Below, piece after piece: positions 22,802-54,608 of a DNA stretch of 54,608 bases. Source of the DNA: a virus; the IMG/VR virus record IMGVR_UViG_3300012812_000001; one strand, given 5' to 3'. Numbering within the stretch: the stretch's first letter is position 1; each line of letters starts with the position of its first letter. A program made the position numbers and the translations under genes. The notes beneath the pieces were generated by a model. It did no database searches. It was not told the origin of the DNA and worked only from the letters and a program-made list of their open reading frames with translations.

Positions 22802-23052
22802 CCTGCGCTCCTTTTCCTGCTCTGCTTCATGGACGGACCGCCTTTGTGGCGCCATGCCGGATTATTTTCAGGTCCTTACAGTGGGGTATGGTGCTGTAAC
22901 GTGAAAAAGTCAACGGCACCCTGCCCATTTATTCCAATGTGTAACGCACCTTGCGTAACTATTCCGTAGTGCGACCATGTGCACTCATTGGTATAGTAGA
23001 GTACACTTCCGCAAAGCTCCGCACCAATGCCATGGGGACTGTGGAAAGCCGT

Positions 23053-23082
23053 ATATTACCATACAGATTTGTATGGTAATAT
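23053..23082. promoter_or_regulatory. Perfect 13-4-13 palindrome ATATTACCATACA-GATT-TGTATGGTAATAT (candidate par operator/centromere)
   Basis: Read directly. It lies in the AT-richer 260-bp gap upstream of parA. Confidence 0.55.
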
Positions 23083-23116
23083 GCCGCCTACATGAGGACC
23101 TTACTCAACCGGCACG

Positions 23117-27786: not shown

Positions 27787-30612
27787 GTGAAGCAGAAGAC
27801 AGGGAAGATCGAAATGGAAAATCTGGACATCAGGCTCGAGATCGCGACCGGCACGCACCGCGGCAAGGTCACCAATCATGTGATGACATGGGGGCAGATC
27901 ATCGATCTGTTCTCTAAGGTCGAGCGCAAGGAGATCACGGTCGCGGAATATCAGGCGCTTTCGAAAGACGAGCGCGACGAAGCCAAGCGGGGGCCGTATT
28001 TTACGGGCGGGCACTATCGCGACGGCGTTCGTCACGTGACGCATATCGATGCGCGCAGCATGCTGACGATCGATATGGACGCGATCACCGACCTGGATCT
28101 GGTCGAGACGATCAAGATGGGGATCTTCCCCGACCTCGAGGCCGAAGCCTTCGTTTACTCATCCCGATCCCACACCCCGGAAGCTCCTCGCCTCCGGATC
28201 GTCCTCCCTCTTACCAGGCCCGTCGACCCGGTGGAATTCTCCCATCTCTCCAGGATTGTCGCGGCCCGGATCGACCCCGACCTGACGCAGACGGACAAGC
28301 TCTCCACGAGTATTGCCCAGATCATGTATCTGCCGACCGTCAACAAGGATGGGGAGTTCATTTCGTCTCGTGTTGTTGGTCCGATCATCGACCCGGACGC
28401 CTGGCTGGCTGGGATCGACCTGAACGAGGGTTCGTCTTGCCTCTTCCCAGGTGAGCGCGAGATTGCGAGACGCACCGGTGTCATCCTGGGTGATCCGCGT
28501 GAGAAAAAGGGTATCGTCGGGGCTTTCTGCCGCACCTATCCGATCTCGCGCGCTCTGATCGAGCTGATCCCCGGCGTCTATGAGCCCGTCTCAGCGGATC
28601 GTTATACCTATGTGGCAGGATCCTCGTCGAACGGCGTGCAGGTCTATGATGATCGACTGCTCTACTCCTGGCACGGGACCGACCCGGTCTCCGAGCAGTG
28701 CGTCAACTCGTTCGACCTGGTCCGTATCCACAGGTTCCGCCACCTGGATGCGGATGCTCCTGCCGGAACCGCGATCAACCGCCTGCCGTCGTTTGCCTCG
28801 ATGGTCCGGGAATACGGGGAGGATGCGGAGATCCTGGAAGAATGGAAAGACAAGGGAGCGCCGCGCGTGACGGCGGACGATTTCATGGATGCGAAAATCG
28901 AACAGGTGGCTGAAGTCGAGCCTGCCGGTGAGCTTCTTGATGCCGAACTGGTAACCATGCTGGGTGTGAGCGCAGAGGATTTTTCCGACGCCGCATCCCC
29001 GACTGTCTCGGCCGCGGATTTCGAACTGCCGACGGCCGCCACGGCCGATGATTTCGAGGTGGAGGTCCAAGCCGCGCCTGCCGCCGCGGCGATCGGCTTC
29101 GATCATGACGGGATCGACGAGCTCCTGGCGGTCGATGCGGATGCATCGGCATCCTGGCAGGATCACCTGACCTATACGCACCGGAAGGACTCCAAGGGGG
29201 TCGTGACGGAGAGCATCATTGATGCGACCGAGGGCAACATCAGCATCATCCTGCAGAACGACCCCGTCACGGCCGGTGCTATCGGGTATGACGGGTTCCA
29301 AGGCCGCATGATGCAGACGAAGCCAATCATTTTTCCGCATTATGGCGCCGCCCAGGCTCCTCTTCCACGCGGCGAGGCCCTGGAAGTCACGGACTCCCTG
29401 TCGCGCAGCATCCTGACCTGGATCCAGGCGAGGAAAGAAGATGGGGGATGGGGTCTCAAGCCTGCCAAGGGCGTGACGGATACCGCTATCCAAGCCGCGG
29501 CCGACAAGCTGAAATATGACAGCCTCATCGACCGGATTACTGCAACCGAATGGGATGGTGTCGAGCGTCTGGATACATTCCTGCCCGATTACACCGGCTG
29601 CGAAGACAATATCTATACCAGGGAGGTGAGCCGCCTTTTCCTGCTCGGCATGGTCGTCCGGGCCATGGAGCCTGGCCACCGCTTCGACCATATGCTTGTG
29701 CTCGAAGGCCCCCAGGGCCTGCGGAAGACGACGATGGTCGAACGGATGGGGATGGGCATGTTTTCGACCCTCCGTGAAGGGGACATGAAGTCCACGAAGA
29801 CCATCATCGAGAAAACACTCGGTGTTTGGGTGTGTGAGCTCGGCGAGCTTGCAGCTCTCCAGGGTATTACCGGCGAGCAAATCGCAGCTTTCCTGTCCGA
29901 TACAAAGGACAGGGAGAGAATGGCCTATGCCAGGTTCTCCCAGACCTTCCAGCGCCGCGCTGTTTTCGTCGGGACGACCAATTCGAAACTGCCCTACCTG
30001 ACCAAGCAGACGGGTAACCGCCGCTTTTGGCCGATTGTCGTGAAAAAACTGATCGACACCAATGCTGTTGAGGAAATTATGCCGCAAGTTATTGCTGAGG
30101 CACTGGTCCTTTATCGGGAAATGCGGGAGGCATCACCTGATTTGAGAAAACTCCTGGATCTTAGCATGTCGCCAGAAGCTGAGGAGATTGCGCTCGAGGT
30201 CCAGAAATCCAGGACGAAAGTCGAAGAAGAGGATCTCTCGGCCGGCGTCACCGGGTGGCTTATGCGCGAGGTCGACCCCAACGACACTGACGCAGCCTGG
30301 GCTCCTGGCGCCGTCGGCACTGTCGAGATCGGAGGAAAGATCAGGACAATGCGCAGGCTGTTCCAGACAGGACATGTGTGGAAGGAGGTAATGGGGAACC
30401 AAGGCCTCCCCCCTCAACGGGACGCCACCGCGATCGGCAAAAGTCTCCAGCATATCGACTTCTTGGAGTCCAGCGGAGGCAAGAGGATGAGCTGCAGGGG
30501 GTTTGGTCAAAACACATACAGGATCGTCAACCTGGAGAAGCTTGCCGTCGAGGTCGAGAAGGCAGCTCACGAGCAAAGGATCTCTGTAGACGATCTGCTG
30601 CGCCTCCACTGA
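27787..30612 (+). CDS. Primase-helicase: N-terminal primase-polymerase-like region plus a VirE-family P-loop domain
   Basis: ...VLEGPQGLRKTTMVERMG...WVCELGELAAL...RMAYARFSQTFQRRAVFVGTTNS...TGNRRFWPIVV matches the VirE (virulence-associated E) NTPase pattern. The start is GTG 27787 or ATG 27814. Confidence 0.7.
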   Translation: MKQKTGKIEMENLDIRLEIATGTHRGKVTNHVMTWGQIIDLFSKVERKEITVAEYQALSKDERDEAKRGPYFTGGHYRDGVRHVTHIDARSMLTIDMDAITDLDLVETIKMGIFPDLEAEAFVYSSRSHTPEAPRLRIVLPLTRPVDPVEFSHLSRIVAARIDPDLTQTDKLSTSIAQIMYLPTVNKDGEFISSRVVGPIIDPDAWLAGIDLNEGSSCLFPGEREIARRTGVILGDPREKKGIVGAFCRTYPISRALIELIPGVYEPVSADRYTYVAGSSSNGVQVYDDRLLYSWHGTDPVSEQCVNSFDLVRIHRFRHLDADAPAGTAINRLPSFASMVREYGEDAEILEEWKDKGAPRVTADDFMDAKIEQVAEVEPAGELLDAELVTMLGVSAEDFSDAASPTVSAADFELPTAATADDFEVEVQAAPAAAAIGFDHDGIDELLAVDADASASWQDHLTYTHRKDSKGVVTESIIDATEGNISIILQNDPVTAGAIGYDGFQGRMMQTKPIIFPHYGAAQAPLPRGEALEVTDSLSRSILTWIQARKEDGGWGLKPAKGVTDTAIQAAADKLKYDSLIDRITATEWDGVERLDTFLPDYTGCEDNIYTREVSRLFLLGMVVRAMEPGHRFDHMLVLEGPQGLRKTTMVERMGMGMFSTLREGDMKSTKTIIEKTLGVWVCELGELAALQGITGEQIAAFLSDTKDRERMAYARFSQTFQRRAVFVGTTNSKLPYLTKQTGNRRFWPIVVKKLIDTNAVEEIMPQVIAEALVLYREMREASPDLRKLLDLSMSPEAEEIALEVQKSRTKVEEEDLSAGVTGWLMREVDPNDTDAAWAPGAVGTVEIGGKIRTMRRLFQTGHVWKEVMGNQGLPPQRDATAIGKSLQHIDFLESSGGKRMSCRGFGQNTYRIVNLEKLAVEVEKAAHEQRISVDDLLRLH

Positions 30613-32586: not shown

Positions 32587-32892
32587 TCACCGGCTGATCG
32601 CTCTTTCGATGATCGTCGCGATCCTCGACAGCTCCGCCACCCTCCGGCCAGGATCCTCGATCCCGGCGCCGCGCCACCATGCCGTCCGCAGCATGTCCCG
32701 CTTCGGATGGCTTTCTGTCGCCAGAATAAGGGCCTCCTGGACATCATGGGATCGTCTCGGATCATCATCAGCAGCCCCTGCAGCCGCCGCCAGGATCGTC
32801 TGGATGGCGGCTTGAAGGCGCTCGCGGCCCGCGATCTCCTCGGACCAAGCGCCGCCGAATGCGACATTCCCGAGCTGTCCCTTTCTGTCCAT
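32587..32892 (-). CDS. Hypothetical 101-aa protein divergent from the Y-family polymerase gene
   Basis: Hand-read codons from ATG 32892 are mostly G/C-ending, as in the real genes here. The overlapping plus-frame stretch looks like junk. No motif recognised. Confidence 0.35.
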   Translation of the reverse strand: MDRKGQLGNVAFGGAWSEEIAGRERLQAAIQTILAAAAGAADDDPRRSHDVQEALILATESHPKRDMLRTAWWRGAGIEDPGRRVAELSRIATIIERAISR

Positions 32893-32912
32893 TTTGCCCT
32901 CTTGCAATGCGA

Positions 32913-32927
32913 GAACAAACATAGAAC
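32913..32927. promoter_or_regulatory. Alphaproteobacterial-type LexA (SOS) box GAAC-N7-GAAC
   Basis: GAACAAACATAGAAC read directly, 38 nt upstream of the polymerase ATG. Confidence 0.65.
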
Positions 32928-32964
32928 ATCGGTGGTCCTGAGACCATCCACAAGATTCAGCCCC

Positions 32965-34167
32965 ATGGACCTCCTGCGCGTCCTTTATATCGACATGAAC
33001 AGCTTCTTCGCGTCCGTCGAGCAGCAGCTCGATCCGCGGCTTCGCGGCCGTCCGGTCGCGATCACGGCCGTGGATGGTGGTCATGGTGCATGCGTGGCGG
33101 CGAGCTATGAGGCCAAGGCGCATGGGGTCCGGACCGGCACCCTGGTCAGGGACGCGAAGCGGCTCTGCCCAGAGATCGTCTTTCTCCCCAGCAGGCATCG
33201 ACTCTATGTGCGCTACAATCTCGCTGTCGCGGATGTCCTGGATCGATTTGCGGAACTCACCAACATCAGGTCGGTCGACGAGTTTCAGATCGCCCTCTCG
33301 GGGGAGGCCATGCATCCCGATGGGCTTGCCCCGTTCGTAGCCAGGATGAAGGCTGCAGTAGCCGACGAGGTCGGCCCGTGCCTGCGCTTCTCCGCCGGGG
33401 CTGGACCCAATCATCTTCTCGCCAAGATTGCCGGGAAATTGCAGAAGCCGGACGGGTTTCGCTGGCTATGGGGCGACAACATGCCCGGAGCGATATCGCA
33501 CCTGGCCCTGGACGACCTGCCAGGGATCTCTCGAGCCATGAAAGAGCGTCTGTTCAGGGCAGGGGTCTACGATGTCGAGCGGCTTTATGGGCTCGATCCT
33601 CGTCATGCCCGCCAGATCTGGAGATCTGTCGAGGGCGAACGGTTCGTGCGGATGCTCCAAGGCATGGACATCCCCCTAGTCGAGACGGTCCGGGGCGGAT
33701 TTGGGCAAAGCAAAGTCCTGGGGCCGGAGTTCCGGAGACCCCGGGAGGCCTACCTGGTCAGCCGATGGCTGATCGAGAAGGCGACGATGAGGCTTCGTCG
33801 GGAGGGCAGAGTGGCTGGGGCGTTTTCTGTGACCATCTCGCTCCTCGAGGGTGCCCCCTGGGCACGATCAGTGACCTGCGCGCCTGCCCAGGACACCCCC
33901 AGCTTCCTGCGGCTGAATCGTGCCCTTTGGCGCCAGGCTTGGCTACACATCCGCTACCACAAGATCATCTCGATTGGGGTGCACCTGGGCAAGGTGGACC
34001 TCCTCGATGCCCGGCCCGGAGACTTTCTACTCGGAATCGAGCCTGGGCGGCCTACCGCCGCCGAGAAGCTTGCCTCAGCCCTGGACCACCTGAACGCCCG
34101 CTTCGGCATGGGCACGATCCGATACGGCTTGAACCGGCCGCATGAGGGCTTCTTCGAGAAGGGCTGA
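32965..34167 (+). CDS. Y-family DNA polymerase (DinB/UmuC/ImuB-like)
   Basis: From the internal ATG at 32965: MDLLRVLYIDMNSFFASVEQQLDPRLRGRPVAI...SVDEFQIAL... is the canonical Y-family N-terminus. The upstream 167 codons of the track ORF look non-coding. Confidence 0.85.
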   Translation: MDLLRVLYIDMNSFFASVEQQLDPRLRGRPVAITAVDGGHGACVAASYEAKAHGVRTGTLVRDAKRLCPEIVFLPSRHRLYVRYNLAVADVLDRFAELTNIRSVDEFQIALSGEAMHPDGLAPFVARMKAAVADEVGPCLRFSAGAGPNHLLAKIAGKLQKPDGFRWLWGDNMPGAISHLALDDLPGISRAMKERLFRAGVYDVERLYGLDPRHARQIWRSVEGERFVRMLQGMDIPLVETVRGGFGQSKVLGPEFRRPREAYLVSRWLIEKATMRLRREGRVAGAFSVTISLLEGAPWARSVTCAPAQDTPSFLRLNRALWRQAWLHIRYHKIISIGVHLGKVDLLDARPGDFLLGIEPGRPTAAEKLASALDHLNARFGMGTIRYGLNRPHEGFFEKG

Positions 34168-34200: not shown

Positions 34201-35091
34201 CTAATGCGCCGATATTTGCCAGCCATGAGCTGCGCATATCGACTCTTCCTGCTGGGTGACCTTGTGGGAAATGAAATCACTCGGACCGCAAAAAGGCAGG
34301 CCAAGGGCGTGGATCAATGCCGCATCATATGTGCCACTGAGCAACAGGATCCCTTCCGCCGCGAGCCGGTTTCGACTTCCGCGCGGACCATCAGCCCTTA
34401 TCCGCCTCATGTAATCCTTTTGAGCCGCGGCCTCCTCGACGATCCGGCGGGAAATGACGCGATCGGTGACGCCCCTGAAAAGCTCGACAAGCTTGTCGTT
34501 ACCGGTCCTGGCCGCGAAAATGGAATCCACCAGGTTCGAGGAGATGGTGCGCCAGAAATTCTGTTCGACAGGGTGGTCACGCAAGAGCCAGAGGATCTGG
34601 GTCGATCCGAATGCCGACACGCTCCTCTTCCCGTCCCTGTTGGCCCCGCCCGTCAGGTTCGCCATATCGGCATAGAAAATTCCCAGGAAACAGCGAGAAT
34701 GCTGTTCATCGAGCGCCGCGAGAAGGCAGGCATGACCAACGGCTTCCTGGGGGATCATCCAGCTACCGGTGATCGTGAACTTCATGTCCACGTCCTCGCC
34801 GCCGATGATGAAGTCCAGTCGACCCTTCGGGACCTGCATCTTCGCCCGCATGAGAATTTCGACGCGCGTGCCGAGATAGGTCTTCTCGGTTTTCTCGAGC
34901 TGGCCGTATGACCGGCGGCGGGTATTCACGGTGTCGATGACATCATCGACAACCTTGCGAAGCATCCCGGGAAACCAGGTCGCCGCCTCCGCCCGCCCGC
35001 CCAGGTGCCGTTCGACCTCTTGCCCAAGCCTTGTCAGATCACCGTAGCGCGGATGACCAGGAACGATCAGGCTGGGCGCGGGTGACCTCAT
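34201..35091 (-). CDS. Type II restriction endonuclease, NaeI family
   Basis: ...EKTEKTYLGTRVEILMR...GGEDVDMKFT...WMIPQEAVGHACLL...LTGGANRDGKRS...ELFRGVTDRVISRRIVEEAAAQKDYMRRIR...AAEGILLL...LGLP... tracks the NaeI sequence as I recall it. It lies downstream of a C5-methyltransferase gene with a 4-nt overlap. Confidence 0.75.
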   Translation of the reverse strand: MRSPAPSLIVPGHPRYGDLTRLGQEVERHLGGRAEAATWFPGMLRKVVDDVIDTVNTRRRSYGQLEKTEKTYLGTRVEILMRAKMQVPKGRLDFIIGGEDVDMKFTITGSWMIPQEAVGHACLLAALDEQHSRCFLGIFYADMANLTGGANRDGKRSVSAFGSTQILWLLRDHPVEQNFWRTISSNLVDSIFAARTGNDKLVELFRGVTDRVISRRIVEEAAAQKDYMRRIRADGPRGSRNRLAAEGILLLSGTYDAALIHALGLPFCGPSDFISHKVTQQEESICAAHGWQISAH

Positions 35092-36035
35092 GCCGCGGCA
35101 TAGATCCGCTTCGATCTGATTGCGACAGCAATCTGTCGGCCCACCGCCTCCGCGACCGGCGGCGGGAAGGCATTACCCACCTGCCGGTATGCATGAGTTT
35201 TCCGGCCGTGGAATTGCCAGTCGTCAGGGAAACCCTGCAGGCGGGCCACCATCCGGATGGTAAGCCTGGGCATCCCGACGAAGTCCTTCTCGGGCGCCTC
35301 TTCGGCCAGCGTCTTGCCATTGACGCCCAGGGTCGCCCAAGCCGCCCGTGCGCGGGTGGGGCCAAGATCGGGGCCGCCGTGCTTCTTTGAGCCGCCGACA
35401 ATCGTCGGAGCGATTTCGTCGGCCCGCTCGGCCCAGGCACGGGCGCCCGGCCAACCCTTCGCGGCCATGAGGTCACCGAGGACCTTGCCGACGGTCGGGG
35501 GGTTGTGATGCCGTTCCTCGGGCCACTCAAACTTGTCTGCGATGTCTTTTTTGACGGCCACGATGACCACGCGGGGGCGGAGCTGCGGGACGCCGAAGTG
35601 AGAGGCGTTCAGAAGACGCCAATCAGCCACGTATCCGAGCTTGATCAGCTTCTTCTTCAGGGATTGCCGGTAGTCGACGAAGACCGCATCAAGGAAACCG
35701 CGCACGTTCTCGAGCATGACCGCCTGGGGGCGGATCTCATCGACCAGGCGCAGAGCTTCAGGGAACAGGTCGCGCTCGTCGTCCTTGCCGAGCTGCTTGC
35801 CTGCCACGGAGAACGGCGGGCACGGGACGCCGCCTGCAAGGAGCTCCACACCGGCGAAGGGCTTGCCGTCAAAGGTGCGCAGATCCCCCTCGCGGACGTC
35901 CCAGGTCGGGCGGTTGAGGCGTAGCGTCTGGCAGGCATGTGTGTCGATTTCGACGAGGGCGTCGTGGTCGAAGCCCGCCCGTTCAAGACCGAGGGCTTGG
36001 CCTCCTGCACCTGCGCAAAGCTCTACTGATCGCAT
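35088..36035 (-). CDS. DNA (cytosine-5) methyltransferase
   Basis: Motif I ELCAGAGG, motif IV GGVPCPPFS, and motif VI MLENVRGF. Confidence 0.9.
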   Translation of the reverse strand: MRSVELCAGAGGQALGLERAGFDHDALVEIDTHACQTLRLNRPTWDVREGDLRTFDGKPFAGVELLAGGVPCPPFSVAGKQLGKDDERDLFPEALRLVDEIRPQAVMLENVRGFLDAVFVDYRQSLKKKLIKLGYVADWRLLNASHFGVPQLRPRVVIVAVKKDIADKFEWPEERHHNPPTVGKVLGDLMAAKGWPGARAWAERADEIAPTIVGGSKKHGGPDLGPTRARAAWATLGVNGKTLAEEAPEKDFVGMPRLTIRMVARLQGFPDDWQFHGRKTHAYRQVGNAFPPPVAEAVGRQIAVAIRSKRIYAAA

Positions 36036-36592: not shown

Positions 36593-36902
36593 CGGCTAAG
36601 GGGATCAGGCCCTGTATCCCCGGCAGAAGGTCCCACGCAAAGCCGGGATTCGGTGACCGTGGAGATATTGATACAAAGTTCTTCAGCGCTCATTCGATTG
36701 CACCCGCTCAATGAAAAAACGATTATTGAAATAAAAAGATGATTGAAAAGGCGAGGAGAAAATACCCTTCAAGCAATCAGATCCAGGAAGAACAAAGAGA
36801 AGATAGAAATATCCAAGAAAGAAGGAAAAAAGAAAGGCCGAAAAGAATGAAACCTTTGGTCTGAATATGGATCACATCGACCTGATACGATCCGAATGTG
36901 GA

Positions 36903-37295
36903 TCATTCATCACGGGGTCGCATGAGTTCCTCCGCCTCGGCCCGGTCCATCGCCTCTTTATGGGGCTGCCACCATTCCCAGAGGTGGTCAAGGCGTGGCT
37001 CCAGGGATGGCCAGATTGCCCGCATGGCGTCGCGGGATGGGCCTTGTGGACTTGTCCGCCAGCCCAGGTGCGGATTCTTGACGACAGTGCCGGTGATGAC
37101 GCCCTTCATAGCCTCCATGGCTGTGACCGTCCGTGCCTCCGACCAGGCGGCAAGGTCTTCCAGGGGGCGTCCCAAGGCCGACCATTGAGCTTCAGTGAAG
37201 TCGGGGTGGTCTGAGCGCTCCAGCCGACCATCCAAGGCTGCCTTGATCACCCCCAGGTATCTCTCGATCTCTGGACGGTCTTCCTCGTCTGACAT
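36903..37295 (-). CDS. Hypothetical 130-aa protein
   Basis: ORF in the coding-like frame. No motif recognised. Confidence 0.4.
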   Translation of the reverse strand: MSDEEDRPEIERYLGVIKAALDGRLERSDHPDFTEAQWSALGRPLEDLAAWSEARTVTAMEAMKGVITGTVVKNPHLGWRTSPQGPSRDAMRAIWPSLEPRLDHLWEWWQPHKEAMDRAEAEELMRPRDE

Positions 37296-37603: not shown

Positions 37604-37685
37604 AAAAACGAGGTTTCTGGGGCGAGCGACGAGGTATTTGGGGCGTAGAACGAGGAATCCGGGTCGAAAAACGAGGTTTCTGGGG
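37604..37685 (+). repeat. Four tandem iterons at 21-bp spacing (consensus AAAACGAGGwwTCTGGGG)
   Basis: The ACGAGG cores are at 37608, 37629, 37650 and 37671. The first and fourth copies are identical. Confidence 0.85.
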
Positions 37686-37888: not shown

Positions 37889-38803
37889 ATGGTAGATCAA
37901 TCTCTTCCGACGCGCGTGTTCGATCTGAAGCCGGTCTATGGGGAGGCGATCAAGCCATCCGAACTGATCCAGATTACTGGCCACCAGAACCTCACCCTCA
38001 GCGCCCGGCGGGCGATCACGATCCTTTGGCACAATGCGCATCGCCAAGGTATTGAGGAGGGAAAGTATTATACCATTGAGTTGGCGGATCTACGGACGGA
38101 CGGGCACAAAGGGAAGGACACGATTGAAGACTCGATAGAGGTTCTGATGCAGACCGTCCTGAAGATGAAGCTGAAAGGTAAGGCTGTTCGTCGTGTGCAG
38201 TTCCTGGGCGGGAACGACATGGACGATCCCGGCCGCCCGTCCGGGACTTTGAAATACAGCTTTGACCCGCTGCTAGTGGATATACTGCGAGACTCTGCTG
38301 TCTGGGGAAAAATTGCGATCCCGGTCTTAATGGCCTTTTCTTCGAAATATGCCGTTTCTCTCTACGAGCATGCATGTCAGTGGACTGGCTTACAGCACAA
38401 GCTCGTCCAGGATTTCACCCTTGATGAGCTGCGCCTCATGATGGGGGTCGAGAAGGGAAAATATTCTGCGTTTGGCGATTTAAACATCCACGTCCTCAAG
38501 CCTGCTGCTAAAGAGATCAATGCCCTAGCACCTTTTAACGTCCAGATTTTGCCCGTCAAAGAGGGTCGCCGCGTTGTCGGCGTAAAGATCGGCTGGGGCA
38601 GGAAGAACATCGAGGAACTCCAGGAAGCCTTCAGGGAGAGCCAAAGGTCGAAGGTTGGACGCAAAGCGCGTTTGTCGGGGCTTGCGGAAGCTGTCGTAGG
38701 GGCGGTGCCAAGCTTGAGCAGCCACTCCCGGGCGGCACGGCTCACGGCCAGGAAAGATGTGGATCGTGTGATCGATGACGGCGATGAGCCGTCATCTTCT
38801 TGA
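37889..38803 (+). CDS. repA: Iteron-binding plasmid replication initiator (Rep_3/RepA-type)
   Basis: ...LIQITGHQNLTLSARRAITILWHNAH..., ...FSSKYAVSLYEHACQW..., and ...LDELRLMMGVEKGKYSAFGDLNIHVLKPAAKEINA... follow the Rep_3 pattern. Iterons lie immediately upstream. Confidence 0.85.
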   Translation: MVDQSLPTRVFDLKPVYGEAIKPSELIQITGHQNLTLSARRAITILWHNAHRQGIEEGKYYTIELADLRTDGHKGKDTIEDSIEVLMQTVLKMKLKGKAVRRVQFLGGNDMDDPGRPSGTLKYSFDPLLVDILRDSAVWGKIAIPVLMAFSSKYAVSLYEHACQWTGLQHKLVQDFTLDELRLMMGVEKGKYSAFGDLNIHVLKPAAKEINALAPFNVQILPVKEGRRVVGVKIGWGRKNIEELQEAFRESQRSKVGRKARLSGLAEAVVGAVPSLSSHSRAARLTARKDVDRVIDDGDEPSSS

Positions 38804-38940: not shown

Positions 38941-39729
38941 TCACGAAATCAGGCCGCGCTGTAGGATTTCCACCTCTGTCCCAGGCGGGACCTCCCAAGG
39001 GTAGCCAAAGGAGACGTTCCGGACGACGGTGTTGCCGACCATTGCCTCGCTGCGGTGGTGAGTATGCCCGAAAAGCCAGGCATCCGGTTGATACCGATGA
39101 ATGAACCCAATAAGGTCCGAGGCATATGCGGGCTGTGCGCAAGCGTCCTGGGACGCCGCCAGGGCAGGGTGTGGCGCATGATGTGTCACGACGATTGTGC
39201 GGCCTCTGAACGGCCGTTCCAAGGCCTTCCCGAGCCAGGATAGGTGGTCTCGGTGAATAGCCGCGGTGTCCCCCGGTGAAATCATGCGATCGTCCCGGCC
39301 GCGGATCTGCTTGTAGTCGTTCATCCACTTCTGGGCACCCATTTCTCCGATCAGGGCGTCGCCGTGGAGCGCAAAATCGGTCCACAGGGTGCAGCAGAGG
39401 ACCCGGTCTCGGCCCACGATGATCTCCGACTTCTGTGCAAGCCTGCCACCTGCGGAAATGCAGATCTCAGCAAGGGTGTCCTCGTCGTCAAGGACATGCC
39501 CGTAATAATCGTGATTCCCGGGAATGATATGGAGCTTCCCAGGGCCGACAAGGTGCGCGAGACGCTCCAGGTGGCGCGGCCAGAGCTGCACCGGATCATT
39601 GGACAGGTCGCCGGCGATGATGAGAGCGTCCAGGTCGGCCAGGATTGCCGCATCGAGACCGGCGAGCGGGTCTCGCCCTGCGGCGGCCCAGACATCGAGG
39701 TGCGGGTCGGCTATGATGAGGGTGGACAT
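38941..39729 (-). CDS. Metallophosphoesterase (Icc/CpdA-like layout)
   Basis: From ATG 39729: LIIADPHLD, IIAGDLSND, IPGNHDYY, VVTHHAP, and FGHTHH in canonical order. The 13 codons upstream in the track ORF are read-through of the repeat module. Confidence 0.8.
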   Translation of the reverse strand: MSTLIIADPHLDVWAAAGRDPLAGLDAAILADLDALIIAGDLSNDPVQLWPRHLERLAHLVGPGKLHIIPGNHDYYGHVLDDEDTLAEICISAGGRLAQKSEIIVGRDRVLCCTLWTDFALHGDALIGEMGAQKWMNDYKQIRGRDDRMISPGDTAAIHRDHLSWLGKALERPFRGRTIVVTHHAPHPALAASQDACAQPAYASDLIGFIHRYQPDAWLFGHTHHRSEAMVGNTVVRNVSFGYPWEVPPGTEVEILQRGLIS

Positions 39730-39751: not shown

Positions 39752-40029
39752 TAGTAGGTGAAGGGCACATACTAGACACCTACTACCCGACCTGCTAGAG
39801 ATTTTTGTGTTCTATATCAAGATTCTAAGGGAAGAATCTGACCACCTAGCAGGTTAGCAGGTGGTTTCGCAGACTTCTATAGAGCTGAAAAATAGTTTCT
39901 ACCTCCTATAGGAGTTTGTTTTTCACCTACTAACCTACTAGATTTTGAAATACCCCACTGATAAATAACAATAAAACAGGCTAGTAGGTGCCCTAGTAGG
40001 TGGGTAGTATGTGCCCTCCACCTACTAGG
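39752..40029. repeat. Left mirror module (~278 bp): 47-bp inverted end motifs, a TAGTAGGTG/CACCTACTA array, and central palindrome CTCCTATAGGAG (39903-39914)
   Basis: Read directly. Six exact 9-mer copies at 39752, 39982 and 39994 on plus, and 39777, 39924 and 40019 as reverse complement. There are about four one-mismatch copies. The interior is AT-rich. Confidence 0.9.
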
Positions 40030-40248
40030 CGCCGACTACGAACGGTGGTGTGCCTTGGAAGACAAATGTTACATAATAACGGTTATCACCATTCCGTGAG
40101 CGCTTTGGCGGGGGCCTCCAACGGAAGGAAAAGGTGATATCCTCGCCTCGAATAGCTATGAAGGGTTCCATCAAGTCCAGGAACGCCGTAAAAAGGTCTC
40201 GGCGTCATTCGACAAAGGGCATTGCGTTAATATCCTGGAGACCATGCA

Positions 40249-41352
40249 ATGCCACGCATCCCGTTCATCGAAGCTAAATTCGCAAGAGATGATTATAAGC
40301 ACGACCTGCTTGTCGATCGTTTCGAAAAATATCTGAAGCAGCTCCGGCGATCAAAGACTGCAGATATTGCAGGCGAGGACGCAAATGCGGATGATTATAG
40401 TCTTCCGGAGCTTTTTGACGGGTCCGATACCGTCGCATTACGCAGAGCCGATCAGACCAAAATCGCACGCCGGGTTTCGAAGCTTGTCAATGCGCACCTG
40501 GCAGCTACCGGAATAGATCACCTAAGCGATAGCGACAAGAAGCGCCTGGTCGGCTTGCGGGATGGCGTCGAGATTGTCGCTATCGAGAGCGAAGCTCGGG
40601 CAGATGAGATCGCTGCCGACCTGCATGCGGACATGCCATGGATGGCACCGGCTACGACAGTCGTCTGGCATGCCCTGCGGCGTTCCGTCCGGGAGGGATG
40701 GACTGGCGTGCGCCTACCCCCGCTCCTTCTCTCTGGCCCGCCCGGGATCGGTAAATCACATTTTGCCCGGCGCCTCGCAGGGCTGGTGGGCACGTCGACA
40801 GACGACATTGAAGCAACCCACGAGACGGCGGGTTTTGGTATTTCTGGGTTGCAGAAGGGCTGGGGGACAGCGAATCCCGGACGCCTGCTCGAGCTGATCC
40901 TGAAGACCCGGATCGGTAACCCTATCATTGTCATCGACGAAGTGGAGAAAGCGGGAGTTATGGTGGCGAAGAGTGGCGAGCGACACACGCTGGCGGATGC
41001 TCTCCTGCCCTTACTTGAGCCGCTTTCAGCAAAGAGCTGGTCCTGTCCATACTTCCGGGTCCGCTTCGACATGTCCTGGGTCGGCTGGGTGATGACCGCC
41101 AATGATCATACTCGGCTCCCTGCCCCGCTCCTGAGTCGATGCCCGCCGGTCGTGCTGCGCGATCTTACGCTTGCCGAGGTCTCCCAACATATTCGGTTCG
41201 AGGGGAAGCGACGCGGGCTCTCGCATGTCGCGATCGATGCGACCCTAGAAGCGGTTGAGCGACATGCCGGTCGGCATCGCATTGATCTGAGATTGGCCGG
41301 GCGGCTCCTGGATCGCGCTGTGGACCTGCAGGACGGGCCGGTCTTGAACTGA
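40249..41352 (+). CDS. Lon-type AAA+ ATPase module without a protease domain (367 aa), unknown N-terminal ~160 aa
   Basis: LLLSGPPGIGKSHFARRLA (Walker A), PIIVIDEVEKAG (Walker B), and ...ADALLPLLEP...SWVGWVMTANDHTRLPAPLLSRC... align motif-for-motif with the Lon ATPase domain (GPPGVGKTS, LLDEIDK, ALLEVLDPEQN, FVATSNS..IPAPLLDR). Confidence 0.8.
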   Translation: MPRIPFIEAKFARDDYKHDLLVDRFEKYLKQLRRSKTADIAGEDANADDYSLPELFDGSDTVALRRADQTKIARRVSKLVNAHLAATGIDHLSDSDKKRLVGLRDGVEIVAIESEARADEIAADLHADMPWMAPATTVVWHALRRSVREGWTGVRLPPLLLSGPPGIGKSHFARRLAGLVGTSTDDIEATHETAGFGISGLQKGWGTANPGRLLELILKTRIGNPIIVIDEVEKAGVMVAKSGERHTLADALLPLLEPLSAKSWSCPYFRVRFDMSWVGWVMTANDHTRLPAPLLSRCPPVVLRDLTLAEVSQHIRFEGKRRGLSHVAIDATLEAVERHAGRHRIDLRLAGRLLDRAVDLQDGPVLN

Positions 41353-41389
41353 CATGGAGGGCAGAGGGGTGGGAGTTGGGCTCGTCCAA

Positions 41390-41668
41390 CTAGTAGGTGA
41401 AGGGCACATACTAGCCACCTACTAGGGCACCTACTAGCCAATTTGTCTTTACTTATCAGTGGGATATTTCCAAATCTAGTAGGTTAGTAGGTGAAAAAAC
41501 AAACTCCTATAGGAGGTAAAAAACTATTTTCAGTTCTATAGAAGTCTGCGAAACCACCTGCTAACCTGCTAGAGAGCCGGATTTTGAATGTAAGTTGTTG
41601 GTGTAGAATGGAAATAATTCTAGCAGGTCAGGTAGTAGGTGGGTAGTATGTGCCCTCCACCTACTAGG
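41390..41668. repeat. Right mirror module (~279 bp), reverse complement of the left module; central palindrome at 41504-41515
   Basis: 41390-41572 is the reverse complement of 39846-40029 with a few mismatches and 1-nt indels. 41620-41668 is the reverse complement of 39752-39798. Six exact 9-mer copies at 41391, 41485 and 41633 on plus, and 41416, 41428 and 41658 as reverse complement. Confidence 0.9.
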
Positions 41669-41690: not shown

Positions 41691-41870
41691 ATGACCACGC
41701 CGGGAGATAAAGCGAACACCCCTCGAGATGGGCAAGGGCCTGTGCGCAGCAAGGAACTGCTCACGGTCCTGGCCAGACTGGACCCGCTCGGAGCCGAGGA
41801 CCAGATGCCCGACCTGGACGAAACGCTTCTCCCGGCCAAAGAAATTGACCTCAGATCAGGCGGCCGATGA
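41691..41870 (+). CDS. Possible 59-aa ORF leaving the right module
   Basis: The ATG is preceded by AGGAGG, but the spacing is only 1 nt. Mostly G/C-ending codons. It is below the track length cut-off. Confidence 0.25.
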   Translation: MTTPGDKANTPRDGQGPVRSKELLTVLARLDPLGAEDQMPDLDETLLPAKEIDLRSGGR

Positions 41871-41891: not shown

Positions 41892-42512
41892 TCACCCATG
41901 CAAACCAATAATGCCAAGGATTCCGTGGAGATCGTCGATCTCATCTGCCTTGAGCAGCTGCACATTGCGACGGATCCTCACCGCCAGTAGCCCAGCCGCC
42001 CTTGCCCCAATGACGTCGGAGGCCGCGCTGTCGCCCACCATCAAGACAGCGCCAGGTTCGACATCAAGCCGCTCGCAGACCGCCTGGAAGAAGCGGCCTT
42101 CAGGCTTCACAGCCCCAATATCGCAGGAATAGCATTCGACATCGACAAACCCTTCCAGCAAGCCGCGCACCTTCTGGACGTAGGGCTGGGCGACATTTGA
42201 CGCCAGGGCGAGCCGCAGTCCAGCCCGGCCTAGCCGCCGTAAAACCTCCTCAGACTCGGGAAACAGCGGGATCGAGGAGATTTCGATGGCCAGGTCGTCG
42301 GCCCAAGCTTCGCGCCAGACTGCCCCGCAGAGCTCTGAGAATTCCTGTAGCGACACGGGCACCCGGCGAGGATCCACCGGATATCGATCTCGTGTGCAGA
42401 TCCCTGCAGCCTCAGCGATTTGGCGCCAAGGGTTCCTGGGCTCCTTCATCATCAGGAGGGTCCCAAAAACATCGAAGGCCACCGCCTGGGGCGGGATTTG
42501 CCATTGCGTCAC
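41892..42512 (-). CDS. HAD-superfamily hydrolase (haloacid dehalogenase-like subfamily)
   Basis: Motif I AFDVFGTLL, then ...ALASN..., ...GAVKPE..., and ...MVGDSAASDV... Confidence 0.75.
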   Translation of the reverse strand: MTQWQIPPQAVAFDVFGTLLMMKEPRNPWRQIAEAAGICTRDRYPVDPRRVPVSLQEFSELCGAVWREAWADDLAIEISSIPLFPESEEVLRRLGRAGLRLALASNVAQPYVQKVRGLLEGFVDVECYSCDIGAVKPEGRFFQAVCERLDVEPGAVLMVGDSAASDVIGARAAGLLAVRIRRNVQLLKADEIDDLHGILGIIGLHG

Positions 42513-42772
42513 GACTGGCCACTCACCTCGCGGACTTCGTGCAAAGAAGTCCCGGCGGGCAGCACAGCGATCATGTCACGCGCAGCATTCTTGATGACTG
42601 TTTCTGCGTCATCCCCTTCCACCGTCAGCGAGACCGCCAGGAACCCCGCTGATCCCGTGCCGACGAGAGCATCCTTGAATCCCGCCTCGTAGACGGCGTC
42701 GGACAGAGCAAATGCATCGCGCTCTCCATCGGGGAGCGCGAAAACCAGATCGAATGCGAATTCTTCTGCCAT
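42509..42772 (-). CDS. Hypothetical 87-aa protein
   Basis: The internal ATG at 42772 is preceded by GAAGAGGGG. 4-nt overlap with the HAD gene. Confidence 0.45.
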   Translation of the reverse strand: MAEEFAFDLVFALPDGERDAFALSDAVYEAGFKDALVGTGSAGFLAVSLTVEGDDAETVIKNAARDMIAVLPAGTSLHEVREVSGQS

Positions 42773-42806
42773 GGGCCCCTCTTCGAGTTTTCGGTCCCAG
42801 GTAACG

Positions 42807-42837
42807 AAAAAAACCGGCCATCCGCAAGGATGGCCGG
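42807..42837 (-). terminator. Terminator-like hairpin with T-run in the leader of the 87-aa/HAD operon
   Basis: On the minus strand, CCGGCCATCC-TTGC-GGATGGCCGG is followed by TTTTTTT, 35 nt upstream of ATG 42772. Confidence 0.5.
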
Positions 42838-43056
42838 CTTGGAGGTCTGTGAAGCAAAGAAGGAGCCCCGAGCTTCTCTCTCGGCGCATGATGGAAATAC
42901 GCACATGCCGTGAAACTTCAACACCCGGGATACAGATTATTTCCGCCTCTCCTCGTCATCTGAAAAACAATGCATAAAAATGCACTGTTGATGCATTTAG
43001 CACGTTGCTTTTTCGCATGGCGAATTACTTTCCCTGATGAAGCAGGGAGATCACAA

Positions 43057-44092: not shown

Positions 44093-45103
44093 TCAAGCTC
44101 TCGGCCGCGGCCCATCTCCAGACGTCCAGGTCAACGGCCTCGCCGCCTCGACCGAGATGATCGGCGAACGCTTGGACTGACCCTGTTGGCTAGACCCGTA
44201 GGCCGACTGCGACTTGACCGCTTTATGCCCGAGCGACAATGCCGTCCGCTCCTTGTCGCCGTCGGCCTTCAGATCGCTACTGCCGGCATGCCGGAAGGTG
44301 TAGGCGTTCAGGCGCTGGTCCCAGCCCATCTTCCAGCCCAGGATTTCCAGGTCTTTGTCCAGGGTCTTCCGGTTGCGAGAGTAGTCCATCTCGTCATCGG
44401 TCATGCAGCTCACAACGGCCTTTCCCGCGGGCATCGTGGCGTCGATCTCGAGGATCCGGTATGGCTGGCCAGCACCGGTCAGCTCGGAGCATTTCGCACC
44501 CTCGATCCGGACGAATACCGACCGGCCGACCTTCCGGATCGACACGCCCCTCTGCAGCTCGGCCGGGCGCACCCCTGACGCCCAGAGCAACGCCACGGCC
44601 ATCCTCGAGGGAGCGGAAGCCAGGCGAAAAGCGTCGGCTCGCCAGTCGTGCTCGCCGCTAGGAAGACGATGTTTCATCGTCTGCTTCTCGGCCAACCCCG
44701 CAGGCTTTTCGGCTTTGTCGACCTGATCATACATGTCGAGACTTGCCGCCAGCATTTCGACGAGACGAGTGAGTTTCGCCTCGACATTCTCGCCCTCTTT
44801 ACCGGCATACCCCTGGTCATAGATGCGCACCAAGGTGGCATAGATATTCCGGATCATCATGGCATGCTGGTATTTGAGGGCAGCCCGAAAAACTTTCCAG
44901 GACCGACCGGGGATATCGACAAGCGGATCCTCTTTCTCCGCTGTTCTCGCATAGATCAGCTTGTATGTCTTGATCGTCGATGCTGATCTTTCCGCCTGAG
45001 CATGCTCAAGCGGCCCCCTCACCCGTTCCTGGACCTCATCAAGAACCGCCTTCAATTTTTGGTTTTTCGCGTCCATCAGGACCTCCCTCTTAACTACGTC
45101 CAT
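44093..45103 (-). CDS. Tyrosine site-specific recombinase
   Basis: ...LLWASGVRPAEL... (Arg), ...AYTFRHAGSSDL... (His-x-x-Arg), ...LGHKAVKSQSAYG (His ... Tyr). The alternative ATG at 45076 has the better RBS (GGGAGG). Confidence 0.7.
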   Translation of the reverse strand: MDVVKREVLMDAKNQKLKAVLDEVQERVRGPLEHAQAERSASTIKTYKLIYARTAEKEDPLVDIPGRSWKVFRAALKYQHAMMIRNIYATLVRIYDQGYAGKEGENVEAKLTRLVEMLAASLDMYDQVDKAEKPAGLAEKQTMKHRLPSGEHDWRADAFRLASAPSRMAVALLWASGVRPAELQRGVSIRKVGRSVFVRIEGAKCSELTGAGQPYRILEIDATMPAGKAVVSCMTDDEMDYSRNRKTLDKDLEILGWKMGWDQRLNAYTFRHAGSSDLKADGDKERTALSLGHKAVKSQSAYGSSQQGQSKRSPIISVEAARPLTWTSGDGPRPRA

Positions 45104-45290: not shown

Positions 45291-45312
45291 ATTGCTGTAA
45301 TCGAACAGCAAT
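45291..45312. promoter_or_regulatory. Inverted repeat ATTGCTGT-AATCGA-ACAGCAAT overlapping the ATG of the 109-aa gene
   Basis: Perfect 8-bp arms with a 6-bp spacer, read directly. Confidence 0.45.
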
Positions 45313-51954: not shown

Positions 51955-54608
51955 TTACAACGAAGCGGAACCACCGTAATACATGCCGTAATCCTGGCCG
52001 TATCCGGTCGGATTGCGGACCTCGATGCCCAGCATGTGGTTCTGCTGACTCTCGGCCGCGATCCGGTCGCTGCGGACGGCGACGCCATTGACCATGTCCA
52101 TCTCGTAGAGGCGGGAACCTACCTCCAGCAGGTAGGCAGTGATGTCGTCGCGATCCGAGCCGGGCTTATCCAGCCGCACACCGAACAGCGTGCCCTGAAG
52201 GGCAAACCCGCCAGAGATGGCCTCCTCTTCGTGCAGGAGTTCCATCTCGGTGTAGGGCGTGCGAACGGATCCCGTCGCCAGCTCTGGAGGCGTGGTCACA
52301 TGGACACGGCGCCAGACCCGGATGAAGTTGACCTGACCTCCTTCCGGTGCGATCGCGTCATCGTCCCATGCAGCGGCAGCGGCGTCCTCATAGCGCCTGT
52401 TGCGCGATTTGAAGGTCACAGACACCCCGGAAGGCTCCGACAGGAGCACAACTTTCCCGAACCGCACCGAGCCTGGCCCAAGAGGACTGCCGCCCGCGAC
52501 ATCCATCCGGACCCCCGCCGGGCGGATCGGTCTTTGCGTCCGATAGCCGCACACAGCCACTCCCGCTCCAAACCAGGCGACCGCCTTGCCGTTAGCGTTT
52601 TCTGGGCGTTGGATAATCCGGACACCACCGAAATTCTGGGCGAAGGCGGGATCTGCCGTGGAGTCGATCAATCCGAGCGGCGCCGGGAGAGCACCCCTCT
52701 CTATATAATAGACCCTGTCATCCACGGAGATCGGCGCGGGTGTGGTGTCATATGCACCGCGCGAGACGGTTACAGTCTGCCCGTCGATCGAGACGATCCG
52801 CATCCATTCCTCGGGGTAGACATAGTCGACGCCATTCCTGTCAGATCCAACTCTCCACCCTGCCCCACCGTCAAACACGACCGATGCGGCGCTTGCCATG
52901 GCGTTCGTAAACTCTCGCCGCCGCCCTGCCTCATGCCAGGAGGGGGCAGTCCCGTCGGGGAGGATGATCTCACCATGGAGTTCGAGCGCCTCCGGGGCTT
53001 TCGCGCGCATATGGCCAAACCCGGAATAGAGATGGACGGGGGCTCCTGTCTGCGCATCATAGCGCAGACCAGGGCCGTTCTGACCTGCGGGCTCGTTCAC
53101 CAGCTGAGAGCGGAGATGCGCCGTGCGCGACACCAGAAGGTAGTCGCCGGCCGAGAAGTCCGGCGCATTGATACCGAAATCGATCCCCGTAATGTCGATC
53201 GTGCTGATTGCCTCGGCTGGCAACGCCACCATCATCCTGCCGGAGGGCGTGGTTTCGACGGTGCCCGCCTCTTCGTAATCGAGATAACCGGTGCCGACTC
53301 CCTTGGCGATAGCCATCCTCTCCATCCTGTCGGGGGATCCGGCAAAGAAGAGCGGAACAGCCTCGCCGGTGTCGTCGAGGCTGACGATATCGGAAATCTC
53401 GGTGCCGGCCGCCGCGATGACGCCAAAGGGGGCGGGCGTGTAGAATGTCGGGAAAATCCTGGATGGCGGGGACTCCCGGCGCCAACGGGATGACGACATG
53501 GCTTCCGACACCTGCACGCCGACCTGCGCGTCGGAGAAGACGTCGTCGACGGCGGTCACGCGGACCCTTTGGTCTGACAGCTTACCGTAATCGATCGGGA
53601 ACAGCCTGGCACGCATCACCAGGTCCTCTTCGGGCCAGCGCACGGTCACGACATCGAAAGGCTTCAGCTTGAGCCCCTCTCTGCCGATGATGAAATCCGC
53701 AGCCGCCACAGGCTTCGAGCGGGTCTTGAGCTCGCGCTTGGCCACGGAAACGGCGACGGATTCCTTGCGCAACCCGTCAAGCCGCAGCTCGCCAGAGACC
53801 AGGCCGCCCCGGATCGATATCCCGGCATCATTCTGGACGGAGACGCTTTTCGACTGGCCCTTCAGCGTCGAGGTCCATTTCGCGACCATGGCGTTGACAG
53901 TGTCTCCCCAGGTCTGGCGGCGCAGCTCGACCAGATCGGCATTGTCGGGCGTGATGGTGATGTCCGGACGGTAGCAATCCGTGGCATCCGGCCCGTATTC
54001 CCCGCTGTCCGGGATCTTCCCGCCTCCGACAGACCGGTAAAGCCGCAACTCCGCATCCGATCGCAGCAGCCGCACCCCCCATTTGCCGCTATCCGGATCG
54101 AGATAGAGACCGCCGCCGATGTGGTCGCAGATCTTTCCTGCGAAGGCGCGCCCCGTGGTCTTGGTGTCCCATGTCAGGGTGATGCCGAGCTTCTCGCGCG
54201 ACAGGACGCGGGCCGCGCGGATGAAGGAGTGCAGATCGACCCTGTCTTCCGGCATCGCGATACCGAGCATCCGGCTGGTCAGGACCTCGTAGAGCATGGC
54301 GGCCGGGTTTGCCTGCGGCAGATACCCCTCGTCCTCACCGATCATCAAAACCTGGCGTTCGTCCTCAGAGACATTCGGCGGGAGCTCGCGCGCCAGGGCG
54401 AAGGCCCGCGGCCGACGGATCATCTTGAAGCTCATCGGGGGGAGCCGGGGATCGTTCTGCCCCCATAGAAAGCCCCTCCCGGAAACAGCCTGGATCGCGG
54501 CCGAGGCGGCCGCGATGATGCCGGGCTTCGGCTTTTTCTTTTCGGGAATGGTCCCGCCGTAAAAGAAGAGCGATGCCACGCCGCGGAACCCGGGCGCACC
54601 CTCCGGGG
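51955..54608 (-). CDS. Tail tip / host-specificity protein (J-like), C-terminal ~843 codons; the N-terminus is at 1-535
   Basis: The track ORF 51955-54579 starts at an internal GTG, and the frame stays open to the window end and across the junction. ...AAMLYEVLTSRMLGIAMPEDRVDLHSFIRAARV... parallels lambda J. Confidence 0.85.
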   Translation of the reverse strand, partial: PEGAPGFRGVASLFFYGGTIPEKKKPKPGIIAAASAAIQAVSGRGFLWGQNDPRLPPMSFKMIRRPRAFALARELPPNVSEDERQVLMIGEDEGYLPQANPAAMLYEVLTSRMLGIAMPEDRVDLHSFIRAARVLSREKLGITLTWDTKTTGRAFAGKICDHIGGGLYLDPDSGKWGVRLLRSDAELRLYRSVGGGKIPDSGEYGPDATDCYRPDITITPDNADLVELRRQTWGDTVNAMVAKWTSTLKGQSKSVSVQNDAGISIRGGLVSGELRLDGLRKESVAVSVAKRELKTRSKPVAAADFIIGREGLKLKPFDVVTVRWPEEDLVMRARLFPIDYGKLSDQRVRVTAVDDVFSDAQVGVQVSEAMSSSRWRRESPPSRIFPTFYTPAPFGVIAAAGTEISDIVSLDDTGEAVPLFFAGSPDRMERMAIAKGVGTGYLDYEEAGTVETTPSGRMMVALPAEAISTIDITGIDFGINAPDFSAGDYLLVSRTAHLRSQLVNEPAGQNGPGLRYDAQTGAPVHLYSGFGHMRAKAPEALELHGEIILPDGTAPSWHEAGRRREFTNAMASAASVVFDGGAGWRVGSDRNGVDYVYPEEWMRIVSIDGQTVTVSRGAYDTTPAPISVDDRVYYIERGALPAPLGLIDSTADPAFAQNFGGVRIIQRPENANGKAVAWFGAGVAVCGYRTQRPIRPAGVRMDVAGGSPLGPGSVRFGKVVLLSEPSGVSVTFKSRNRRYEDAAAAAWDDDAIAPEGGQVNFIRVWRRVHVTTPPELATGSVRTPYTEMELLHEEEAISGGFALQGTLFGVRLDKPGSDRDDITAYLLEVGSRLYEMDMVNGVAVRSDRIAAESQQNHMLGIEVRNPTGYGQDYGMYYGGSASL
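54486..54608. repeat. Terminal overlap identical to 1-123
   Basis: Same 123-base string as the window start. Confidence 0.95.

Follow-up and report, generated by a model that had tools for sequence, protein, structure and literature searches.

A probable PriRep-type replication origin, present in two copies around a cargo gene, in a circular phage-plasmid

Introduction

The replication origin of Staphylococcus aureus pathogenicity islands (SaPIs) and phage-inducible chromosomal islands (PICIs) was reportedly described by Ubeda et al. in 2007 and 2012 as one that works with a self-loading helicase, Rep or PriRep. Rep proteins unite the initiator and the self-loading helicase, and in SaPI5 a primase is fused to them as well; their C-terminal winged helix binds 6-12 short repeats that lie immediately downstream of the rep gene (PMC9371898). 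The centre of such an origin is an AT-rich region with at least two repeats on each side, running in opposite directions, and two hexamers are proposed to load, one per side (PMC9371898). Here, we describe a locus that probably belongs to this type. It lies in IMG/VR record IMGVR_UViG_3300012812_000001, a stretch of 54,608 nucleotides (nt) that was analysed as a whole and that we call the window. Two repeat-packed modules of ~277 bp, module L (39752-40028) and module R (41391-41667), are 1.36 kb apart and bracket a gene for a Lon-like AAA+ ATPase (40249-41352, plus strand). Our reading, to which we assign a probability of about 0.7, is that the modules are two copies of a PriRep-type lytic origin used by the replicon's own primase-helicase (27787-30612, plus strand).

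The resemblance to the SaPI/PICI origin begins with this primase-helicase, a VapE-like initiator helicase of the Rep/PriRep kind that is primase-fused, as in SaPI5. Each module has 10-11 sites, within the 6-12 of the islands, and they are split by an AT-rich centre (39864-39923 in module L) with five to six sites on either side. They are also opposed, with tandem pairs running (+,+) and (-,-) next to the centre and triplets running (-,-,-) and (+,+,+) further out. The repeats are 9-mers and therefore longer than the penta- and hexanucleotides of SaPIs, and the host replicon is of a different kind, a GC-rich alphaproteobacterial phage-plasmid with an extra Rep3 origin. Position also differs: whereas the SaPI/PICI origin follows rep immediately, the window has two copies, 9.1 kb away. 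Every structural hallmark of a SaPI-type origin is present except adjacency to the gene. The type of origin is known and this is not a new kind of system; what is unusual is that the origin is displaced by 9.1 kb and duplicated, with its copies bracketing a cargo gene.

Other described systems share parts of this design. In P4, the alpha primase-helicase binds two separate repeat clusters, ori and crr, which are both needed in cis and which it bridges. The window is comparable in having one primase/superfamily 3 (SF3)-helicase/winged-helix protein, short repeats in both orientations and two cis sites that the protein would bind. The P4 sites differ in structure and are 4.5 kb apart, and the alpha helicase is a more distant relative. 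The domains of alpha are organised as primase, helicase and winged helix (PMC2777425). Archaeal Orc1/Cdc6 origins, with their inverted origin recognition boxes (ORBs), and the SF3-helicase origins of SV40 and papillomaviruses also place inverted initiator sites around an easily melted centre. Two helicase rings load there head to head. The analogy is mechanistically apt, although the initiator families are different and there is no sequence relationship.

An earlier inspection of the letters of the window alone, here called the sequence-only reading, had pointed to the modules, drawn the comparison with archaeal Orc1/Cdc6 origins and stated that the modules did not match lambda cos, P1 parS/inc/lox, N15 telRL or any insertion sequence (IS)-end architecture it knew. 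The SaPI-type origin, with its short opposed repeats around an AT-rich centre, is a known architecture that they do match (PMC9371898).

Structure and authenticity of the modules

Both modules are built from the 9-mer TAGTAGGTG, or CACCTACTA on the opposite strand. It occurs exactly 12 times, six times in each module and three times on each strand of it, and zero times in the rest of the window; in dinucleotide-preserving shuffles the mean count was 0.01 and no shuffle reached 12. Nine copies with one mismatch also lie within the modules, and one chance copy is found at 10358, so that a module carries six exact and four to five one-mismatch sites. A search of the whole replicon for dense k-mer arrays returned two kinds only, these modules and the iterons of the Rep3 gene.

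Module L starts with an outer cluster (39752-39798) in which TAGTAGGTG on the plus strand is followed on the minus strand by CACATACTA, CACCTACTA and GACCTGCTA, the minus-strand sites being spaced 11-12 nt apart. After a spacer comes an inner tandem pair on the plus strand, CTAGCAGGTTAGCAGGTG (39846-39863), whose two sites are 8 nt apart. The AT-rich centre (39864-39923), a putative unwinding element, contains the palindromes TCTATAGA (39876-39883) and CTCCTATAGGAG (39903-39914), placed symmetrically around the centre of the module. It is followed by a second tandem pair, CACCTACTAACCTACTAG on the minus strand (39924-39941), in which the sites are again 8 nt apart; ~50 nt lie between this pair and the outer cluster on the opposite strand. 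Another spacer leads to the right outer cluster (39981-40028), with three plus-strand sites at spacings of 12 and 11 nt and one inverted terminal site at the end. Module R has the same series of parts: a left outer cluster of one plus-strand and then three minus-strand sites (41391-41437), the plus-strand pair CTAGTAGGTTAGTAGGTG (41476-41493), an AT-rich centre (41494-41554) with the palindrome CTCCTATAGGAG at 41504-41515, the minus-strand pair CACCTGCTAACCTGCTAG (41555-41572) and a right outer cluster (41620-41667).

Each module as a whole is a quasi-palindrome, bounded by terminal inverted repeats of 47-52 nt (39747-39798/39981-40032 in L, 41386-41437/41620-41671 in R). The GC content of the modules is 0.37-0.38 (0.37 for module L), against 0.60 for the replicon, and module L as single-stranded DNA is predicted to form a long hairpin (z = -9.0). 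A promoter scan gave one weak candidate, a promoter-like hexamer pair in module L (39945-39972), which is not decisive. Rfam returned only a sub-threshold chance match, and a literature search for the 9-mer returned primers only.

Module R is 85% identical to the reverse complement of module L over 281 nt, with one patch in which the two are essentially unrelated (39800-39845 versus 41573-41619). The sequence-only reading had described them as mirror images. This is true of their inner parts, all of which are inverted between L and R from end position 35 inwards, but the outermost 25 nt (39752-39776/40004-40028 versus 41391-41415/41643-41667) pair in direct orientation, with one difference between the two left ends and none between the two right ends. 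Since the outer 25 nt are direct and the inner parts inverted, the modules are not a simple inverted pair. The change-over falls inside the third 9-mer, within a 9-nt run of identity. Although few positions bear on it, this mixed orientation suggests that one interior flipped long ago or that conversion between the copies was patchy.

When the four ends are aligned, 2 of the 36 columns within 9-mers are variable, compared with 6 of the 11 spacer columns (Fisher p = 0.001). Because the variation is concentrated in the spacers, the 9-mers are under constraint, as would be expected of protein-binding sites. The proposal of a dense protein-binding array made in the sequence-only reading is supported, and its description of the modules, including the counts of exact and near-exact 9-mers, the diverged patch of ~45 bp, the internal symmetry with its inner inverted pair and palindrome, and the AT-rich interior in a GC-rich replicon, is borne out.

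The module pair is not an assembly artefact, since the window is matched at 100% identity both by two independent k141 assemblies and by several Logan contigs, and the repeats explain the breaks in the Logan data: each break coincides with exact repeats of 35-38 nt, longer than k = 31. We also considered contig breaks as a sign of inversion and rejected this, as the same exact repeats account for all of them. Five contigs from four samples, each 100% identical to the window, show a single orientation, although consensus assemblies could hide a minority orientation.

The primase-helicase

The proposed initiator is a PriRep, VapE-like protein of 941 amino acids (aa), whose helicase core lies between an N-terminal primase region and a C-terminal domain; its gene belongs to a replication block that also encodes PolA. 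It matches the Pfam VapE-like domain (E = 2.6e-59), and residues 476-817 match SaPI1 Rep1 (PDB 7pds, E = 7e-43). Its AlphaFold model has a predicted local distance difference test score (pLDDT) of 82, and the best Foldseek match of the model is again 7pds (E = 8e-30), with a template modelling (TM) score of 0.68-0.70 over ~490 columns that take in nearly the whole Rep1 chain, including its C-terminal part. The statement of the sequence-only reading that the PolA/primase module has no recognisable initiator was thus mistaken, as this gene encodes a homologue of SaPI1 Rep1 and a Rep3 initiator is present in addition. No close relatives of the primase-helicase were found in IMG/VR or the protein database, where the best full-length match is 30-35%, and within the window there is no repeat array beside the gene.

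Repeat arrays beside VapE-like genes in other phages

We surveyed 78 IMG/VR loci (L127-L206) with a VapE-like primase-helicase, taking the densest cluster of an exact 8-mer in each and calling it strong when it had at least five copies. This was the case in 41 of the 78 loci. The zone from -150 to +400 nt relative to the primase-helicase stop codon, which represents 5% of a locus, contains the start of 37 of these 41 strong clusters. Displaced arrays are rare (4 of 41) but do exist; in one further relative, L126, the arrays, which also adjoin AT-rich DNA, are 3.7 kb downstream of the primase-helicase gene.

The arrays also share a layout. Of the non-redundant arrays, 36 in number, 29 contain two sites on one strand at a spacing of 8-9 nt; in 18 of the 36, a site on the other strand lies 44-47 nt (at most 55 nt) from such a pair, and triplets with spacings of 10-13 nt occur in 6. 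All three features are found in both window modules, the opposite-strand site being here at 50-51 nt.

In L168, a phage of 65% GC, a complete symmetric module of ~300 bp directly follows the terminator of the gene. It opens with an outer cluster that has an inverted terminal site and closes with a triplet that likewise has one; between them, a tandem pair lies on each side of the centre, 45 nt from the outer sites on its side. Since the order of parts is the same in the window, the 'terminal inverted repeats' of modules L and R can be understood as the outer site clusters of a symmetric origin. In L125, a TGAGACAAT array starts 18 nt past the stop codon, with sites at positions 1(+), 26(-), 38(-), 50(-) and 98/106(+,+); the sites at a window end are at 1(+), 15(-), 26(-), 38(-) and 96/104(+,+). 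Ruegeria phage vB_RpoS-V16 carries a AATCGGACA array beside AT-rich DNA, ~330 nt past its primase-helicase gene. These three arrays, which are presumably origins, have the triplets, tandem pairs, spacers and AT-rich centre of the window modules, but their motifs are different (AGGTTACA, TGAGACAAT and AATCGGACA) and each is a single copy adjacent to the gene. Across the survey, near-identical lineages have the same motif and other lineages have different ones, as would be expected of repeats that are specific to their initiator. Two of the relatives resemble the window in other respects: vB_RpoS-V16 and L126 share its PolA/primase-helicase gene order (PolA being common at the protein level), and L126 has a terminase of the same family.

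A probable displaced and duplicated origin

In the mechanism that we propose, the 9-mer TAGTAGGTG would be recognised by the C-terminal DNA-binding domain of the hexameric helicase, the sites on the two sides of a module facing in opposite directions. The module centre would then melt, and the fused primase would start synthesis both ways. The primase-helicase would be able to bind both modules, and either copy could fire. Use of the modules would fall in lytic or high-copy replication, with Rep3 and its iterons acting as an independent plasmid origin.

Several observations weigh against this assignment. The link between the primase-helicase and the 9-mers is one that we infer, and the surveyed relatives on which it draws are distant (28-42% identity). 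As 37 of the 78 loci have no cluster of at least five copies, the association of arrays with the stop codon is not a universal rule. The family norm is a position immediately downstream (37 of 41), whereas module L lies 9.1 kb past the primase-helicase stop codon at 30612, with a Y-family polymerase, NaeI restriction-modification genes, the Rep3 module and a metallophosphoesterase as cargo in between. On one side of the module, 50-51 nt separate the tandem pair from the outer cluster, and on the opposite side ~58 nt do so, compared with a family mode of 44-47 nt. The duplication is without parallel among the relatives, where a second cluster within 5 kb on either side was found in 0 of 38. Finally, the module boundaries are sharp and the flanks unrelated, which would also fit a mobile element.

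If the assignment of the modules as PriRep-type origins is correct, a lytic origin can be given to an otherwise isolated alphaproteobacterial phage-plasmid, which would then replicate by two distinct systems, one made up of Rep3 and its iterons, for maintenance as a plasmid, and one of PriRep and the modules. The displaced and duplicated origin would also hint at how the insertion of cargo reshapes the replication modules of phages. More generally, the shared layout (tandem sites 8-9 nt apart, sites on the other strand at a distance of 44-47 nt from them, and an AT-rich centre) offers an annotation rule across diverse phages with a GC content of 29-65%, and could help to locate origins and to forecast which repeats an initiator recognises.

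A more far-reaching idea, which we regard as distinctly unlikely, is that the AAA+ gene and the two origins together make up a cassette with an origin at either end that hitchhikes as a mini-replicon. Because the outer ends are direct, recombination between the modules would release a 1.64-kb circle with one origin and the AAA+ gene, and a helper primase-helicase could replicate this circle. Were no circle excised, the cargo gene would still be over-replicated early after induction as both origins fired. Cargo or defence genes could in this way be spread or amplified by borrowing a phage origin.

Alternative explanations

Paired lytic origins had been among the candidates of the sequence-only reading, and an origin with inverted sites around an AT-rich element is the part of its proposals that is best supported; the others, a second centromere, invertible switches and a pair of miniature inverted-repeat transposable elements (MITEs), find little support. 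As MITEs, the modules would be non-autonomous copies moved by a host transposase acting on the 47-nt terminal inverted repeats, which landed around the AAA+ gene and may supply outward promoters. They do look the part: like MITEs such as the Correia elements, they are small, discrete, AT-rich and non-coding, with terminal inverted repeats and strong hairpin potential, and they lie near gene starts, 20-24 nt from the outer ends. TA is found at all four ends, where it is itself part of the repeat unit; the AAA+ gene and its metallophosphoesterase partner are rearranged relative to all relatives, and AAA+ homologues are found in transposon-rich contexts. We nevertheless consider a MITE pair unlikely. 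Neither the modules nor the whole 2-kb unit have a further copy in PLSDB or INPHARED by megablast or sensitive blastn, and exact-match pattern scans of IMG/VR (TAGTAGGTG-N14-18-CACCTACTA) and Joint Genome Institute (JGI) metagenomes (N16) gave single chance palindromes only. By eye, no target-site duplication beyond TA was seen in either the direct or the inverted scenario. The 80 Rhodobacteraceae loci with AAA+ homologues (~0.85 Mb) contain no copy either. Since these searches showed no other copies and no such duplication, a dispersed MITE is not supported. Moreover, each end consists of four phased sites of which the terminal one is inverted relative to the next three, unlike multi-site transposon ends, and the same layout recurs with different motifs next to the primase-helicase genes of unrelated phages. 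This recurrence is also what speaks against reading the modules as operators or centromere-type arrays bound by some other DNA-binding protein that the replicon or its host encodes, either a repressor of divergent cargo promoters or a second partition site like R1 parC or pB171 parC1/parC2. Such a role would suit sites that are dense, helically phased (11-12 nt) and constrained, outward-reading genes that start just outside both modules, and the promoter-like hexamer pair at 39945-39972; loci of the pB171 type have repeat arrays on both sides of genes. However, 16 kb separate the modules from the par operon, where a different 40-bp palindrome immediately precedes parA, and the gene between the modules is not of the ParA, ParM or TubZ type. 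There is no candidate regulator next to the modules (the neighbouring small open reading frames (ORFs) match no DNA-binding family), and the AAA+ family is never accompanied by such arrays. This explanation, too, seems to us an unlikely one.

Two further possibilities concern what might act on the modules or bind them. If the modules were paired invertible switches or sites of site-specific recombination, a recombinase would flip each ~210-bp interior or the whole AAA+ segment. The direct outer 25 nt and inverted interior could be a trace of this, with a change-over in a 9-nt run of identity that is too short for homologous recombination, and the AAA+ gene runs opposite to the gene that usually accompanies it. 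A tyrosine-recombinase-like gene is located 2.4 kb away, and the combination of a core pair and accessory sites in direct repeat is reminiscent of attI or of the resolution site of Tn4430. On the other hand, the flip is deduced from two to three diagnostic positions per end, all five assemblies have the same orientation, and the recombinase-like gene has its own 8-6-8 palindrome, unrelated to the 9-mer. Twelve sites per module are also far above the need of known switches, and the layout is that found at primase-helicase genes in phages, all of which makes switches very unlikely. The sequence-only reading had instead cast the AAA+ protein as the initiator or loader for the flanking arrays, and its gene does sit between them and encodes 150 N-terminal residues without an assigned function. 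Comparison with homologues largely refutes this idea, which we now see as extremely improbable. Flanking inverted repeats were found at zero of 85 homologue loci (80 genome and 5 viral), and over all tests (72-85 loci, ~0.85 Mb of Rhodobacteraceae DNA) there was neither a copy of the module nor a k-mer array that exceeded background. Conservation of the N-terminal region extends to homologues without arrays, and the conserved partner of the gene is a metallophosphoesterase. Given these loci without repeats, module copies or arrays, the AAA+ gene is not the modules' partner.

The AAA+ gene and its neighbours

In contrast to its supposed role as initiator, the identification of the gene between the modules as a Lon-type AAA+ gene lacking the protease stands: its AAA core resembles that of Lon, and a protease domain is absent. 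We conclude that the gene is cargo and no part of the origin machinery. The family has 587 homologues and is widespread in Rhodobacteraceae at ~50% identity, often in several copies per genome and beside Tn7-like tnsABC/tniQ or IS66 genes. In relatives, the recurrent metallophosphoesterase neighbour is always co-oriented and 10-80 nt away (the pair is present at L025, L030, L034, L049, L052, L058, L063, L064, L066 and L072), and a second phosphoesterase is often found as well. The window arrangement differs from all of these in that the metallophosphoesterase (38941-39729, minus strand) and the AAA+ gene are divergent, with module L in between; the start codon of the former is 20 nt outside this module. 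The pair may be an uncharacterised mobile, defence-like cassette. PADLOC gave no match for the AAA+ protein and a weak PDC-S10 match for the metallophosphoesterase.

Some smaller features were noted around this gene. The 220-nt leader from module L to the AAA+ start contains the 11-nt palindrome ATAACGGTTAT at 40060-40100, which may be an operator for the AAA+ gene. On the far side, a 59-aa ORF without a family match (41691-41870, plus strand) starts 24 nt outside module R and reads outwards from an AGGAGG ribosome-binding site. A distant AAA+ homologue (34% identity) occurs on the prophage-like contig IMGVR_UViG_2791355088_000003 (L118), where seven copies of CGTTGACA and its complement lie within 1.5 kb downstream of position 5675; they are unrelated in sequence to the window 9-mer.

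The replicon and its other genes

The ends of the window are identical over 123 nt (1-123 and 54486-54608), which makes the replicon a circle of 54,485 bp, and circularly permuted contigs of 54,626 nt are present in two assemblies. Its source samples are ERZ27245276, ERZ27245287, SRR6474768 and SRR6474783. It is a circular phage-plasmid. The head genes are lambda-like and the tail is that of a siphovirus, with a GpA terminase, portal, capsid E and tape measure, and the large terminase is a 38% match to that of DSS3-P1-type Ruegeria phages. The accessory stretch comprises the Y-family polymerase (32707-34167), the NaeI restriction-modification genes (34201-36035), the Rep3 initiator, the metallophosphoesterase, the AAA+ gene, a HAD hydrolase and the divergent tyrosine-recombinase-like gene.

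The Rep3 initiator gene (37889-38803) has its own iterons upstream, seven copies of the 18-nt AAAACGAGGTTTCTGGGG between 37388 and 37880, of which four are in tandem (37607-37685), two directly precede the rep start and one is at 37388. At 36626-36925, a very AT-rich stretch (GC 0.35) contains a 17-nt tandem repeat. Rep3 and these iterons therefore constitute a separate plasmid origin and initiator, unrelated to the 9-mer. The relatives of Rep3 in PLSDB are ordinary plasmids, with no related phage-plasmids among them. The maximum of the cumulative GC skew is at ~41-42 kb; as it coincides with a change of gene strand, we did not use it as evidence.

A ParA operon is also encoded, with parA at 22130-22801. 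Upstream of parA is a near-perfect 40-bp palindrome, GCCGTATATTACCATACA-gatt-TGTATGGTAATATGCCGC (23048-23087), which is probably the par operator or centromere.

A small ORF (42509-42904, minus strand) matches the PADLOC candidate defence family PDC-M06B (E = 3.6e-13). Taken with the weak PDC-S10 match, the NaeI genes and the Y-family polymerase, this suggests that the region from 31 to 45 kb is a cargo or defence island.

The tyrosine-recombinase-like ORF (44093-45103, minus strand) is a divergent orphan, with a Pfam Phage_integrase match at E = 0.06 and a fold match to XerA at E = 3e-4. It keeps R179, K204, R271, H293 and Y302, and has only three relatives among 5.8 billion proteins, whose contigs are not long enough to be informative. 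Lying 190 nt upstream of this ORF, the perfect 8-6-8 palindrome ATTGCTGT-AATCGA-ACAGCAAT (45291-45312) may be a lox/dif-like site for dimer resolution.

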